64,000 nucleotides of DNA, from the IMG/VR virus record IMGVR_UViG_3300044676_005314, positions 7,807-71,806 of that record; one strand, given 5' to 3'. This DNA comes from a virus (lineage: Duplodnaviria; Caudoviricetes). Both the position numbers and the translations under genes were made by a program. Below the pieces are notes generated by a model, which ran no database searches, was not told the DNA's origin, and was given only the letters and a program-made list of their open reading frames with translations. Positions 1 to 7,994 of the stretch are shown here, piece by piece; within the stretch, counting starts at the first letter, position 1; every line of letters starts with the position of its first letter.

Positions 1-353
1 ACCTAAAAAATCTAAAGTAATTCTTTAGATTTATCCATAAGCAATAATCTCCCCTGCTCCAATATCTCCATAGGACTAGAACGGATGTTCTAAACTCCTG
101 TGGGACTCCATTGGACGAAGGAACGACCCACCTCGTGGGTCCAACCTATCTTCCAACTAGGTTCTCCTTTAGTAAGTCGGGCTCTCTGCGAATTGCTTTG
201 ACTTACTCGCCCATTTCCACATTTCCAAAGTTTTATTCTTTGTACTGTGCTTGGTATTCAGTGGGGGCTTTTCCTAACATTGCAAGTACTTTTCCCACCT
301 GCTCCAATTTTATTTCGCTCTCTCCTTTTATGGTTTAATCAATTTATATATAT

Positions 354-382
354 ATATTGCCACATCATAGGAAGTTTGTCAA
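354..382 (-). promoter_or_regulatory. sigma70-type promoter, divergent from the ArdC-like gene promoter
   Basis: TTGACA-17-CAATAT with TGG extended -10; only micro-ORFs (under 30 aa) follow on the minus strand. Confidence 0.75.
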
Positions 383-448: not shown

Positions 449-1369
449 ATGAAAACACAAACAACAAAATTAAGCAATAAGGATATAGTCAAGGATTTAT
501 CTGAAAAAATAGATGCATCCATTGATGAGTTGATTGCATCGGATGATTGGACTAAGTACCTATCTTTCGTAAAAGGTCAGCACCCATATTCTTGGAACAA
601 TACATTCCTTATACAATTTGAGGGTTGGGTTAGAGGTTTCAATCCTTCATATGTACGAGGAGCAAAGCAATGGAACGCTGTCAATAGAACTATCAAAAAA
701 GGGGAGAAAGCTATTTGGATTTTAGCACCTCGTTTTGGATATTCTTGTGCAGAAAAAGGATGCGTTGGAAGCAAAGCTGTTTGGAATAAAAATCTAAAGA
801 GAATGGTTTGTAATAAATCCCTATCACATAGAACTGAAAAACAATTATTTGGATTTATGGGCGTACCTGTTTTTGATATATCACAAACAGAGGGAGATGA
901 AATCTCTTTTATTACTCTTAAAGAAAAATGCGAGGGAGCTACAACTCAATTATGGGATGAGCTTATCGTAATGGCAGAGAGTAAAGGATTCAAAGTTGAA
1001 GTGGGCAACGCAAAAGGAGCCGATGGATTCTGCGACCCAAATAAAAAGGAGATTGTTATTGATAGTAATAGTTCCTTTGGGTATCAAGTAAAGACACTAG
1101 TCCACGAAATGGCTCATATGCTCTTACACGATGACTTGGATGCATATAGGCAAAATAGGGCTAGGTTTGAAACCGAAGCCGAAGGAGTTGCGTGGATAGT
1201 CTGTCAAGCACTTGGTGTCCATTCAGAAGGAGATAAATATTCTTTTGGGTATATCAAAAATTGGGGAGGCGATGATGCTAAGGCACTCGTTAAATCTTCC
1301 CTAGCTAGGATACAAAAGACAGCTACACAAATCCTTGATGAGATTGAAAACGATTTGGAGAGTTTGTAA
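449..1369 (+). CDS. ardC: ArdC-like antirestriction / ssDNA-binding protein with C-terminal HExxH metalloprotease-like domain
   Basis: N-term W..YL.F...HPYSWNN..LI.......V.G..QW....R.I.KGEKAIWILAP and F..V.VFDISQTEG; C-term TLVHEMAH..LH and ETEAEGVAWIVC..LG. Confidence 0.85.
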   Translation: MKTQTTKLSNKDIVKDLSEKIDASIDELIASDDWTKYLSFVKGQHPYSWNNTFLIQFEGWVRGFNPSYVRGAKQWNAVNRTIKKGEKAIWILAPRFGYSCAEKGCVGSKAVWNKNLKRMVCNKSLSHRTEKQLFGFMGVPVFDISQTEGDEISFITLKEKCEGATTQLWDELIVMAESKGFKVEVGNAKGADGFCDPNKKEIVIDSNSSFGYQVKTLVHEMAHMLLHDDLDAYRQNRARFETEAEGVAWIVCQALGVHSEGDKYSFGYIKNWGGDDAKALVKSSLARIQKTATQILDEIENDLESL

Positions 1370-1462: not shown

Positions 1463-1753
1463 TTGGAAAACACAATAAAATTGGACAGTAGGCAAACACT
1501 TACTATCCTTGAGAGCTATTTGAAAGCAGGAGCAAGACTACACCACTTCAATGGAGCACAATGGTATATCGCTATTAGTGAGGACCTAGTTGCAATAATT
1601 GACAGTGGGAGAAGAGATGACTGCACTCTTGACTTCTTTACAGGAGACAAGGCTGTCAGCTATCTTGAGACAGGTAGCAACTGCCAAGAGGAGAACGCGT
1701 TTGAGGATTCGTTTGAAAGCTACAAGGAGCTAATTGTAGGAGTTTGCGTTTAA
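1463..1753 (+). CDS. hypothetical protein
   Basis: GGAGG RBS before TTG, own promoter. Confidence 0.7.
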   Translation: MENTIKLDSRQTLTILESYLKAGARLHHFNGAQWYIAISEDLVAIIDSGRRDDCTLDFFTGDKAVSYLETGSNCQEENAFEDSFESYKELIVGVCV

Positions 1754-1771: not shown

Positions 1772-1800
1772 TTGACAAATGTTGAGTTGTATGGCAATAT
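1772..1800 (+). promoter_or_regulatory. sigma70-type promoter for an ORF-free region
   Basis: TTGACA-17-CAATAT with TGG. Confidence 0.8.
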
Positions 1801-1806
1801 GGATTA

Positions 1807-2235
1807 TAAGAGTTAGACAAAAGAAAGTAGGAAAGTAATTAAAAGGTTCCCTAAATCGCTAAGGTAAAACGGAACGCTAGGATACTTAGGGTGGGTAGCC
1901 CAAAAGGCCTTGTTAGTACAAATTAAAAAGCCATTGAAGCAAGTAGGAAGCAATAACTATCTGAAGCTATATAGAAACCATTTGGATGTGTCATCCGTGG
2001 GGAATGTAAGTCAGCAGTACTGATTTTATAGTGGTTAGACAAGTTACCGAAAGTGTAGAGTATGGGACTTAGTTAAAATTGTTAGGTCTGTATATAAAAC
2101 TTGGAGCAATTGATAAAAAAGTCTTAGGACTCGACCTTGTGGCGTTGCAGAAGCAAAGGACCTTTTAATTCTTTGTTACTTTAGATTTATAGGACAGCTG
2201 TGGATTTAGTTGCTTTCCCCACAGCAAAGTCCTTT
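1807..2235 (+). ncRNA. putative large structured ncRNA (RNA-A)
   Basis: own promoter, no ORF of 60 aa or more, closing helix AATTAAAAGGTTCC (about 1837-1850) / GGACCTTTTAATT (2157-2169), internal helices with G-U pairs valid on the plus strand. Confidence 0.55.
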
Positions 2236-2304
2236 ATCCAATCCAATCCAACGGAGTTTTAGGAGCAGGGGAGCCTATCGCTGTTTTTTGGAACTAAAAA
2301 TAAA

Positions 2305-2478
2305 TTAACCTAAAATATTAAAAGTTGCTAAGAAACAGCCTAAGAGGGTTAACGCATCTAGGTTAATTTGTAGAGCGATATCCATTTCTTTTAGCTTTGA
2401 GCCGTTAGTAATGGAGTTATCTACAAAGTACCATTTACTGTGGTAATTGCCCTTAACTCGGTATTGTGTTGCTTTCAT
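2305..2478 (-). CDS. 57-aa leaderless protein with hydrophobic C-terminus (MKATQYRVKG...LGCFLATFNILG)
   Basis: translated by hand; TTGACA(2513-2508)-17-GATAAT then 6 nt to ATG. Confidence 0.65.
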   Translation of the reverse strand: MKATQYRVKGNYHSKWYFVDNSITNGSKLKEMDIALQINLDALTLLGCFLATFNILG

Positions 2479-3739: not shown

Positions 3740-4042
3740 ACTTGGTTCCTTACTGCAGTGGGCTAACCATCCATTGTAACGGCAGGGATATCGTAGGGAT
3801 ATCTGACGGCTACTAGGAGCAAGAAGGATTGGAAGAGGGTCCACGAAGAAAAAAATGGACCGGCAATAAGCGTGGGATGAAATTGAAGCCCACCTCCATT
3901 CCTGCATCCAACGGAAATAAAAAGGAACTTCGTTCCCTCCCTGTCCTTGCCTCCCCTCCAAGTCCTAAGAGTCCTATGGATATGGTGGAACAGGGGAGCC
4001 TCTGTCTTTAGGGAGTTTTATCTCTCTCATTGCTTATATTCC

Positions 4043-5052: not shown

Positions 5053-5171
5053 TTGACAAACTCCGAACTCCTGCTAGAATGGAAGTAGAACTCCAATTGC
5101 TCCACAGGACTCCACTTTATAAAAAAAAATCTTAAAATTGACTTGACAAAAGGAATGGGGTATGGCAATAT
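5053..5171 (+). promoter_or_regulatory. two tandem sigma70-type promoters
   Basis: TTGACA(5053)-16-TAGAAT and TTGACA(5143)-17-CAATAT. Confidence 0.75.
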
Positions 5172-5199
5172 GGATGTATAAGCAACAGAAAGGTCAGCA

Positions 5200-5433
5200 A
5201 TGACATACATAAGCAAAGAACACGGCGACAAAAAAATTGTTGGAAGATACGAGGTGGAAATGCCTGCTCAAACTTTAGAGTGTAAAACTAGAGGAGAGGG
5301 ATGTTACTTACCGGGATATTTTAAATATCAAGAGGACGAACAAGGACGCAGATATCGTACCAAGTTCCACAGAGTAACAGCTCACACCGTATCAATGCCG
5401 ATTTTTGAGGGAGAATCTAGACCTATACTTTAG
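5200..5433 (+). CDS. small Cys/His protein, paralogue of 6262..6504
   Basis: AGAAAGG RBS; C-x6-C-x-LPGY...KFH-x2-T-x-HT shared with 6262. Confidence 0.75.
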   Translation: MTYISKEHGDKKIVGRYEVEMPAQTLECKTRGEGCYLPGYFKYQEDEQGRRYRTKFHRVTAHTVSMPIFEGESRPIL

Positions 5434-5605: not shown

Positions 5606-5634
5606 TTGACAAATTCCTTGTCTCCTGTTATAAT
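5606..5634 (+). promoter_or_regulatory. consensus sigma70 promoter with no ORF downstream
   Basis: TTGACA-17-TATAAT, TG extension. Confidence 0.75.
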
Positions 5635-5777
5635 GGAGTTAGAAAAAATAAATAAAAAAAAATAATCTCCCCTGCTCGAGTTTATCCGGAGTGTTGGAAG
5701 AGGACCCTAATGAAGGTTCCGGAGTTTTTGGAGCTCTCTAAATGCGCCTCCAATGGATTTTTTGGCATTTTGTGGAT

Positions 5778-5793
5778 TAGAACATTTGTTCTA
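5778..5793. promoter_or_regulatory. LexA (SOS/Cheo)-like palindrome
   Basis: TAGAAC-ATTT-GTTCTA fits the Gram-positive GAAC-N4-GTTC box. Confidence 0.5.
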
Positions 5794-6261: not shown

Positions 6262-6504
6262 ATGAAAACAACAAAAACAGAAAGAGATACAAAAATGAAT
6301 ACCATAATTAAAGACGGCGTAGAATACTTAGTAGAAGAAATCGGCTCAATGACTGTACCGTGTACAGCTAAGGGTTTCTGTACACTACCGGGTTATTCTA
6401 AAAAAAGACTAATTAAAAGAGAAGATGGTAGCTTCGATGAAAAAGTTAAAAAGTTTCATAAGCTAACACCACACACACTATATACAAAGATAGAGAAAGG
6501 TTAA
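6262..6504 (+). CDS. small Cys/His protein, leaderless, paralogue of 5200..5433
   Basis: TTGATT-16-TACACT, 7 nt to ATG; shared motif. Confidence 0.75.
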   Translation: MKTTKTERDTKMNTIIKDGVEYLVEEIGSMTVPCTAKGFCTLPGYSKKRLIKREDGSFDEKVKKFHKLTPHTLYTKIEKG

Positions 6505-6520
6505 ATAGAAAGGTTAATAA

Positions 6521-6545
6521 AACCCCTAGAAATAGGGGTTTTTTT
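6521..6545 (+). terminator. intrinsic terminator
   Basis: ACCCCTA-GAAA-TAGGGGT followed by T run; near-identical to 12809. Confidence 0.75.
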
Positions 6546-6560
6546 GAAAGGTAAAACATT

Positions 6561-7826: not shown

Positions 7827-7994
7827 TCGTAAAAATCTGGGTTCGCGCGCCGTTGGCCTAATGCGAGTTGCAATGTCAGATGTCATATCCTTTTTTTCAG
7901 AATCTAGAGTTTTAGTTTAGATTTATTTTGGGCAGGGGGTGTTCTGCACCTTTTGAAGCTGTGCCCTACTCTCTGTTGGTATGTATTTAATTGT

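Follow-up and report, generated by a model that had tools for sequence, protein, structure and literature searches.

The 64,000-nucleotide (nt) stretch of DNA analysed here (hereafter the window) comprises bases 7807-71806 of a 71,806-base-pair (bp) IMG/VR virus record and contains, between the genes for a 96-amino-acid (aa) protein and a convergently oriented 57-aa protein, an element that we call RNA-A. We are highly confident that RNA-A is a conserved, structured non-coding RNA that represents a new family and, as far as the sequence collections that we searched reveal, it is found solely in one clade of uncultured marine siphovirus-like phages. The evidence comes from the pattern of change among its homologues, which preserves a set of long-range helices, leaves extensive unpaired segments invariant and bears no trace of protein coding.

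RNA-A is present on 28 marine or estuarine contigs (the window counted) from Tara, JGI and ENA samples, which reduce to 12 distinct sequences; one of the other 11 is 98% identical to the window, one is 87% identical and nine are 60-66% identical. Homologues of the 96-aa protein encoded immediately upstream occur in marine metagenomes at 50-99% identity. We fetched the contigs that encode these homologues and searched the gene-free gap that follows the gene with blastn and nhmmer, and RNA-A was present in the gap wherever the 96-aa protein was at least 67% identical. A scan of 241 million metagenome records for an invariant 21-mer produced 34 matches and seven additional true loci. RNA-A was absent, both at the locus and elsewhere in the fetched DNA, from contigs L002, L024-27 and L091-102 (96-aa protein at most 61% identical) and from contig L003 (61% identity in the ArdC protein); in distant relatives that lack RNA-A the site is occupied by an unrelated 121-aa gene and not by a joined gene. 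No match was found when the region was compared by blastn with 50,697 phage records, scans of IMG/VR with three conserved words returned chance matches in coding DNA and no copy beyond this record, and of 25 matches in 185,579 species genomes none was upheld by nhmmer, so that these genomes supply neither a prophage copy nor a clue to the host. A covariance-model search of the whole genome, the window included, and of more distant relatives detected no paralogue or remote homologue, and no paralogy between RNA-A and the other intervals of the window that are free of open reading frames (ORFs). RNA-A is thus a single-copy element at a fixed locus.

We derived an initial consensus of 57 base pairs by applying RNAalifold to a MAFFT alignment of the 12 sequences. 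In this alignment 95.7% of the cells were paired, compared with 83% after column shuffling and 25-57% when the partners were slid by 1-3 columns; 27 of the 57 pairs were compensatory (4-6 in the slid controls), and the covariation observed was reached in none of 500 shuffles. The central domain was curated by hand, a covariance model of 366 positions and 68 pairs was built, and the 12 sequences were re-aligned to it. In the model-fitted alignment 89.9% of the cells pair (32-58% when slid), 34 of the 68 pairs are compensatory (7-13 when slid) and, once more, none of 500 shuffles was as good. All seven differences between the window and its close relative L018 fall outside the consensus helices, an outcome with a chance probability of ~0.04 if ~36% of positions are paired.

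The same alignments reveal the strand and the non-coding nature of the element. Among paired cells G-U combinations outnumber A-C combinations 35 to 8, which assigns RNA-A to the + strand, the strand of the promoter described below. Substitutions between homologues show no preference for any of the three codon phases and the indels are nearly all of 1-2 nt, from which it follows that the region is not coding; nor is any reading frame open in all homologues. In agreement with a first-pass annotation of the window, which had been made from the sequence alone and had proposed here a large multibranch RNA, there is no ORF of 60 aa or more; the longest reach 46 and 39 aa (minus strand) and 37 aa (plus strand). 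The central claim of that annotation, a large multibranch RNA on the + strand, therefore stands, with 12 homologues, 34 compensatory pairs, the G-U excess, a conserved promoter and the lack of a codon signal behind it. Its size estimate was ~370-430 nt; the core measures 334 nt and the primary transcript in this phage is probably ~425-480 nt.

The core is bounded by P1, a closing helix that joins its two ends (Table 1). This long stem had already been proposed, as AATTAAAAGGTTCC (1837-1850) pairing with GGACCTTTTAATT (2158-2170) 308 nt away through 11 perfect pairs, one U-G and one C-G, and it is upheld by the 11 homologues; its outer part co-varies, reading AATTA/TAATT here and GTAAT/ATTAC or AAATAT/ATATTT in relatives. 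P2 shows no variation, which makes a covariation test impossible. Inward of P2 and P3 the consensus contains a short arm (P4-P5, 1876-1913), in which the conserved internal loops AUACUU and AAAAGG separate the two helices, and a central domain (P6-P9), after which comes the 3' domain. Covariation secures P1, P3, P4 and P6 as well as single pairs in P5 and P11. P7-P9 hold in an eight-member subgroup and, with small shifts, also in the subgroup of the window, which has no ~20-nt element. In eight relatives P8 forms 9 bp without interruption around an identical UGU loop; four of its pairs are compensatory, and P9 is matched in relatives by GCUU/AAGC, GCCU/AGGC, GCUC/GAGC and GUCG/CGAC. The inner helix that encloses P8 and P9 appears to match a CUAUACAG/CUGUAUUAG helix that is longer in the other subgroup, where a ~20-nt insertion is present as well (the counterparts are CUAUU/AAUAG in L054 and CUAAAACAG/CUGUUUUAG in L023), and it is less certain than the outer helices. 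The conserved YGAUU that follows P9 could form a pseudoknot with AAUCG (1854-1858), a putative pairing that is kept in all 12 sequences. Two other candidate pseudoknots were rejected: that between AAGUA of the leader and UACUU of the P4 loop is broken, uncompensated, in L054 and L023, and that between UACUU and an AAGUA 3' of P4 is absent in three homologues.

About half of the inner helix map proposed by the first-pass annotation proved wrong. The GGATG/CATCC hairpin (1984-1988 with 1992-1996) is present and is upheld across the 11 other distinct homologues, and AAGTCAG/CTGATTT (2008-2014 with 2020-2026) is likewise present, although what the family upholds is the small TCAG/CTGA hairpin within it. 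The pairings CTAAGGTA/TACTTAG, AACCAT/GTGGTT, GACTTAG/TTAGGTC and TTGC/GCAA, on the other hand, fared no better than controls (68.9% of cells pair, compared with 67.3% in shuffles, and there is no compensatory excess). Indeed, CTAAG pairs with CTTAG at 2068-2072, forming P3 and displacing both CTAAGGTA/TACTTAG and GACTTAG/TTAGGTC, and the TTGC-AGAA-GCAA hairpin (2145-2156), which does exist in the window, is specific to this phage and its closest relative.

Sequence conservation is concentrated in segments that the consensus leaves unpaired. Of the 349 aligned positions 145 are invariant, even though identity is only 60-66% for most homologues, and invariant words occupy the single-stranded joints between the helices (Table 1), among them GGAAUGUAAG (2001-2010), which directly follows P8. 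The densest block, at 2097-2139, is mostly unpaired and has 40 of its 43 bases identical in all 12 sequences; it consists of UUGGAGCAAUUGAUAAAAAAG, a 4-bp hairpin whose loop is UUCG or UUAG, and CUCGACCUUG. Among phages with RNA-A the 96-aa protein (67-99% identity) varies more than this block, the uniformity of which speaks for tertiary structure or for a partner that recognises it.

Table 1. Features of RNA-A and its surroundings (window coordinates; w/, pairs with)
Feature	Position	Sequence or pairing	Remarks
Promoter	1772-1800 (+)	-35 TTGACA 1772-1777; 17-nt spacer; extended -10 TGg-CAATAT 1792-1800	
5' leader	1808-1836 (+)	conserved word AGAAAGUAGG-AAAG	purine-rich; columns invariant in alignments
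RNA-A core	1837-2170 (+)		334 nt, bounded by P1
P1, closing helix	1837-1849 w/ 2158-2170		13 bp; 3 of 8 scored pairs compensatory; 96.9% of cells pair
P2	1850-1854 w/ 2082-2086	CCUAA/UUAGG	stacks directly on P1; invariant, paired in 12 of 12
P3	1858-1863 w/ 2068-2073	GCUAAG/CUUAGU	5 of 6 pairs changed on both sides; 98.6% of cells pair
Joint P3-P4		AAAACGG	invariant, single-stranded
P4	1876-1881 w/ 1908-1913		one U-U mismatch in this phage; 5 of 6 pairs compensatory
P4-P5 internal loop		AUACUU / AAAAGG	invariant, single-stranded
P5	1889-1892 w/ 1898-1901	GGGU/GCCC, loop GGGUA	one U-G to G-C change in 3 sequences
Joint P4-P6		AAUUAAAAAGCC	invariant, single-stranded
P6	1931-1934 w/ 2062-2065	CCAU/AUGG	closes central domain 1931-2065; 3 of 5 pairs compensatory
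P7	1943-1946 w/ 2044-2047	GUAG/UUAC	central domain; 3 of 6 pairs compensatory
Inner helix (less certain)	1967-1971 w/ 2027-2031 (+)	CUAUA/UAUAG	encloses P8 and P9
P8 hairpin	1978-2000	CCAU 1978-1981, UU bulge, GGAUG 1984-1988, loop UGU, CAUCC 1992-1996, GUGG 1997-2000	
After P8		GGAAUGUAAG	invariant, single-stranded
P9 hairpin	2011-2014 w/ 2020-2023	UCAG/CUGA	
After P9		YGAUU	conserved, single-stranded
Between 3' strands of P3 and P2		UUAAAAUUG	invariant, single-stranded
3' domain	2074-2157 (+)	UUGGAGCAAUUGAUAAAAAAG, P11 hairpin, CUCGACCUUG, GCAAAG	
Palindrome	2107-2112	CAAUUG	in 3' domain
P11	2120-2123 w/ 2128-2131	AGUC/GACU, loop UUAG (UUCG in relatives)	one pair changed on both sides in 6 sequences
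3' cassette, first element	2191-2233 (+)	AGGAC-A-GCUGUGG ... CCACAGC-AAA-GUCCU	hairpin
3' cassette, second element	2247-2290 (+)	UCCAACGGA; GGAGCAGGGGAG with CUGUU; UUUUUU 2284-2289	weak stem-loop, then U run
ArdC-like gene	449-1369		upstream of RNA-A
96-aa gene	1463-1753		upstream of RNA-A
57-aa gene	2305-2478 (-)		convergent, downstream of RNA-A

The core is preceded by a promoter of the sigma-70 type. The arrangement TTGACA-17-TGnCAATAT is kept in all 12 distinct sequences, ~45-110 nt upstream of the core, and in this phage transcription would start near A1808. Indeed, the promoter belongs to a cassette (an A-tract, ACTTGACAA, a 17-nt spacer, and TGn followed by a CAATAT-like -10 element; ACTTGACAA..TATGGCAATAT) that occurs in ~25 copies on both strands of the first 18 kilobases (kb) of the phage, each copy preceding a tiny gene or an ORF-free stretch. 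The leader between promoter and core resembles the Shine-Dalgarno leaders of the early mRNAs of the phage, and the start codon is absent after it. Part of the leader (1824-1835) can pair with 2171-2182, extending the closing stem to ~24 bp here (1824-1849 with 2158-2182), and by our own reading of the alignment this leader-trailer pairing seems to be conserved in part only. In L019 (4300-4375) and at the equivalent position in L015, an insertion of ~50 nt between promoter and core carries a mini-ORF of 13 codons (MQRRAEAFPANRK), the stop codon of which is the UAG of the conserved leader word AAAGUAGG.

At its other end the conserved unit has a sharp boundary, since in no relative does blastn or nhmmer similarity extend beyond the 3' arm of P1 (window ~2170). 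Downstream lies a 3' cassette of two elements. The first is the hairpin that the first-pass annotation had counted with the RNA as GCTGTGG/CCACAGC (2197-2203 with 2219-2225); the hairpin is real, but it is a reused 3' module that stands behind genes in relatives and hence lies outside RNA-A. It follows the inserted small genes in 10 of the 12 distinct homologues and, in most relatives, is found 300-450 nt further downstream. In five relatives inspected in full the order is hairpin, T run (~10 nt after the hairpin) and a UCCUAUGG..GGAGCAGGGGAG stem-loop, mostly followed by a bidirectional hairpin terminator; in the window the T run is missing at 2191-2233, and the terminator listing has no entry at that position. 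The second element ends in a run of six U residues, 15 nt before the stop codon of the convergent gene, and this run is the likely 3' end of the primary transcript. Copies of the second-element motif are located at +2262, +3987, -60 and -5678 of the window and at -7325 of the genome; each ends an ORF-free or short transcription unit and is oriented with transcription, so that the motif closes four other units of this genome. The terminator loop is complementary to GGGGAAUGUAA, a pairing that is not conserved in relatives. With regard to whether RNA-A is a discrete gene, then, the promoter is conserved throughout, whereas the terminator is the reused cassette in this phage and none directly follows the core in relatives.

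In the 10 other distinct homologues a second promoter lies within ~20 nt after the core, on the same strand and with no terminator between, and drives a gene for a small CxxC..CxxC (zinc-ribbon-type) protein together with one or two further small variable genes. Its spacer and -10 element fall inside an operator-like palindrome, CTCCTATAG-N9-CTATAGGAG (L006:4740-5100, with equivalents in L012, L019, L023, L034, L039, L054 and L059), and the ATG of the CxxC..CxxC gene is only ~6 nt after the -10 element, which suggests a possibly leaderless mRNA. This promoter, its palindrome and the small genes have all been deleted from the window and from its 98% relative (L018/L063), so that the core abuts a trimmed cassette, and in both the core has been kept intact despite that loss.

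An early promoter of its own, retention where the downstream genes are gone and a co-varying scaffold that carries invariant loops together point to a folded RNA that acts on its own. We therefore favour, though we regard the balance as even, a role for RNA-A as an early trans-acting RNA whose loops engage a protein or another macromolecule. According to this proposal, the + strand would be transcribed from the strong early sigma-70-type promoter, and the 334-nt core would be the functional unit, with P2 and P3 stacking on the 13-bp P1 and opening into two arms (P4-P5 and P6-P9), followed by the almost invariant and largely unpaired 3' domain. The folded RNA would act in trans early in infection, as neither an mRNA nor the leader of a neighbouring gene, with the co-varying helices serving to position the invariant purine-rich loops for a partner; the likeliest candidate is a protein of the host or of the phage, which would be scaffolded or sequestered (as by a decoy). 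In this phage the transcript would end in the reused 3' cassette. In relatives that lack a terminator after the core, RNA-A might remain the 5' part of a longer transcript or be excised at the extended closing helix; the use of that helix as a processing site is speculation.

Several points weigh against this proposal, some of them against the structure itself. The 12 sequences amount to ~6-7 independent lineages, and the central helices are less secure than the outer ones. Moreover, the minimum free energy (MFE) of 1807-2235 (-111.1 kcal/mol; z = -2.13; 4 of 100 shuffles as good) is marginal, as is that of the core alone (z = -1.41), and the reverse strand gives z = -3.23. The first-pass annotation had named folding energy against shuffles as a check; at this level it would not settle the matter, and it is because of covariation, not folding energy, that we place the structure beyond chance. 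The consensus fold of the window is also 24 kcal/mol worse than the unconstrained MFE (-57.2 compared with -81.3 kcal/mol); single-sequence folding recovers P1, P5, P8 and P9 and replaces P2-P4 with local pairings that are not kept in the family. Long-range, junction-rich RNAs that depend on tertiary contacts or partners usually show such a deficit, yet it calls for caution. With respect to function, transcription of RNA-A, including its start and end, is deduced from sequence. No recognisable RNA-binding or RNA-processing gene was found in the phage (reverse transcriptase, Ro, ligase and nuclease were among the partners considered, none of them recognisable), and the adjacent 96-aa protein, for which AlphaFold gives a confident model (predicted local distance difference test score, pLDDT, 90), had nothing below E = 0.046 in a Foldseek comparison with the PDB and offers no hint of RNA binding. 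Finally, the position of the core in the 10 other distinct homologues, directly upstream of same-strand small genes with no terminator between, fits a leader.

That arrangement is the principal support for a different explanation, in which the core is a cis-acting leader, riboswitch-like or an attenuator, that senses a ligand, a protein or temperature and controls read-through into the small zinc-ribbon-type genes. A multi-stem junction closed by P1 and rich in invariant unpaired bases does resemble large riboswitch aptamers, and the palindrome just downstream in relatives (CTCCTATAG..CTATAGGAG) could sequester AGGAG. We nevertheless consider a leader unlikely, given that the small genes are served by a consensus promoter located after the core and before their start codon, that they are absent from the window and L018/L063 where the core is intact and the seven differences spare the helices, that no expression platform co-varies with P1 and that no riboswitch family in Rfam matches; in the window, no same-strand gene is found before the 3' cassette. 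It is distinctly improbable that RNA-A is instead a ribozyme or a self-assembling RNA-only particle whose invariant core would be catalytic or self-associating, for example through self-processing to 334 nt or dimerisation at CAAUUG. In size, number of helices and proportion of invariant unpaired bases it is comparable to the large ornate RNAs of bacteria and phages, several of which are ribozymes or multimeric assemblies, and where no terminator follows the core in relatives the 3' end must come from processing or read-through. However, no known ribozyme motif in Rfam matches, and CAAUUG alone means little because 334 nt of sequence should contain about five 6-nt palindromes by chance. GOLLD, ROOL and OLE are the subject of a published cryo-electron microscopy (cryo-EM) study.

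The extreme conservation of the unpaired 43-nt block is seed-like, and might suggest that the invariant 3' domain pairs with phage or host RNA; alternatively, read-through could be antisense to the convergent 57-aa gene, because the bidirectional hairpin terminator that relatives have between the convergent units has disappeared from this phage. There is indeed one perfect 11-nt complement of UGGAGCAAUUG, at window 5094-5104. Yet the rest of the phage contains 52 complementary 11-mers, within the 18-55 of shuffled controls (phage targets only), complementary 11-13-mers are no commoner in the phage than for shuffled sequence, and what lies at 5094 is a variant copy of the repeated 3' cassette and not a specific target, all of which leaves a base-pairing regulator with very little probability in our estimation. 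Least credible, to the point of being nearly dismissed, is the notion that the region encodes protein (small peptides or a minus-strand frame) or has no function (a decaying gene or a chance fold). Stop-free minus-strand frames do reach 139 codons in L012 and 99-103 codons in L034, L019 and L015, but they arise because the sense strand is purine-rich, have no ATG and are broken or frame-shifted in the other eight sequences; there is no codon-phase bias, the indels are of 1-2 nt, and neither coding nor decay explains the covariation.

Comparison with Rfam 15, which comprises 4227 models, including those for GOLLD, ROOL, OLE, raiA, HEARO, RNase P, 6S, transfer-messenger RNA (tmRNA), group I and II introns, pRNA, riboswitches and self-cleaving ribozymes, gave no match at the gathering score in the whole window. 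At E values up to 10 the window core, L012 and L023 each had one weak, unrelated match of 11-19 bits, to different families. This covariance-model check, which the first-pass annotation had recommended, thus assigns RNA-A to no described RNA, and while the family is new, its general kind, the orphan large phage RNA, is already known. The nearest analogues in kind are GOLLD and ROOL, which like RNA-A are large, multi-junction, highly conserved non-coding RNAs of tailed phages found by comparative analysis. ROOL is ~580 nt and GOLLD ~800 nt long, whereas the RNA-A core is smaller, at ~335 nt, and is matched by neither covariance model even at E values up to 10; GOLLD and ROOL are often found beside tRNA clusters, whereas the 71.8-kb record has no tRNA genes, and RNA-A is known from marine viral contigs only, with no prophage copy in the 185,579 species genomes scanned, unlike RNAs of the GOLLD and ROOL type. 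The pRNA of phi29 is likewise a phage-encoded structured RNA made from an early promoter near a genome end, and it acts in trans, as is presumed for RNA-A. However, the Rfam search returned no such match, RNA-A is about twice as long and differs in architecture, and its phage, which has the usual terminase, portal and HK97-type head, does not belong to the phi29-like podoviruses with their protein-primed DNA. Like large riboswitch aptamers and leaders, RNA-A has a P1-closed multi-helix junction, many invariant unpaired nucleotides and, in most relatives, a position upstream of same-strand genes; it differs in that an independent promoter precedes the genes, the element is retained without them, no platform is evident and no family matches.

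Several other assignments were rejected. RNA-A lacks acceptor or T-arm features and matches no tRNA or tmRNA model. A group I or II intron is excluded, because RNA-A lies between complete genes, behind its own promoter, and interrupts no gene; moreover, no intron model matches. Since it is not repeated, it is neither a mobile element nor a type III antitoxin array. A Csr/Rsm sponge was considered on account of ten GGA trinucleotides, but the hairpin loops are UGU, GGGUA and UUAG or UUCG and the architecture is of the long-range, multi-junction kind. This reading and a T-box-like reading of the GGGUGGUACCCC hairpin were both dropped because the overall architecture does not fit.

RNAs of more than 300 nt with a complex fold are rare in bacteria and phages, and earlier examples have turned out to be ribozymes, cores of ribonucleoproteins or RNA-only assemblies. 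RNA-A is well delimited and strongly co-varying, is distributed globally among ocean phages and can be studied apart from the neighbouring genes; it is small enough for in vitro transcription, chemical probing and cryo-EM, and its covariance model can be applied to viromes. A bolder possibility, which we regard as doubtful, is that RNA-A founds a new class of large functional RNAs in phages, being either a ribozyme or capable of self-assembly or of host-factor capture, with the 43-nt domain as its active or recognition centre, deployed in the first minutes of infection. If so, the host factor captured could be, for example, a component of translation or defence, and RNA-A would be used alongside a mini tmRNA-like RNA and other promoter-driven RNAs. 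Given that the early region holds both this tmRNA-like RNA and further promoter-driven ORF-free units, phages of this clade may use RNA, besides small proteins, for host take-over.

The record encodes a terminase, a portal, a head protease, an HK97-type capsid and a tape-measure protein, a set that identifies a siphovirus-like tailed phage. Its GC content is ~36%, and its terminase is at most 27.5% identical to the terminase of any isolated phage. The mini tmRNA-like RNA is 81 nt long and lies at L005:7213-7293 (+), 513-593 nt to the left of window base 1. It combines the tmRNA acceptor stem, with G3:U70, and a T-arm, linked by one hairpin; the mRNA-like part is absent and the 3' end is ACAA, not ACCA. 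It scores 44.9 bits against the Rfam tmRNA model (E = 1.9e-15), narrowly missing the gathering score of 47, and ARAGORN gives no call on it. The relative L003 has a similar ...GGAGTTCAACTCTCCACAGCTCCACGA end near 5610-5640. This RNA may function as a tRNA-like RNA, or it may represent an attP-type copy of the end of a host ssrA gene, and its presence in the same phage as RNA-A suggests that RNA-based early functions are a theme of the genome. TAGAAC-N4-GTTCTA palindromes occur at window 79-92 and 5780-5793, at L005:7344-7357 and at L003 ~7948-7963; they have the form GAAC-N4-GTTC, which we take to be that of the LexA (Cheo) box of Gram-positive-type bacteria, and may offer a clue to the host lineage and to SOS control.

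The 3' cassette was observed at window 2233-2290 (+), 3960-4030 (+), 1-100 (-) and 5651-5690 (-) and at L005:7295-7345. Its order is UCCUAUGG(R), ~7 nt and a GGARCAGGGGAG stem-loop with a CUGYUCC-like word downstream, often followed by a hairpin (AAUCUAAAG...CUUUAGAUU) and a U run; it is conserved in relatives and may be a terminator module or a protein-binding site. The stretch at window 5089-5109 (+; AACTCCAATTGCTCCACAGGA), which holds the complement of UGGAGCAAUUG, reads on the minus strand as the cassette variant UCCUGUGGAGCAAUUGGAG, and the complementarity may reflect chance or a shared binding word. Two further ORF-free stretches, at window 1-355 (-) and 3740-4030 (+), end in the same 3' cassette; the former also possesses a hairpin terminator (8-33) and a promoter of its own (TTGACA at 383-378, minus strand). 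In distant relatives without RNA-A, terminators are followed by other GC-rich ORF-free blocks (L002:5900-6060 and 6490-6560; L003:6980-7140 and 7870-7915; L024:4400-4500 and 5150-5320), some of them repeated within the locus (for example, CCGGAGTATT..GGCTCTAATGAG occurs twice in L003), and these may represent further RNA families of this phage group.

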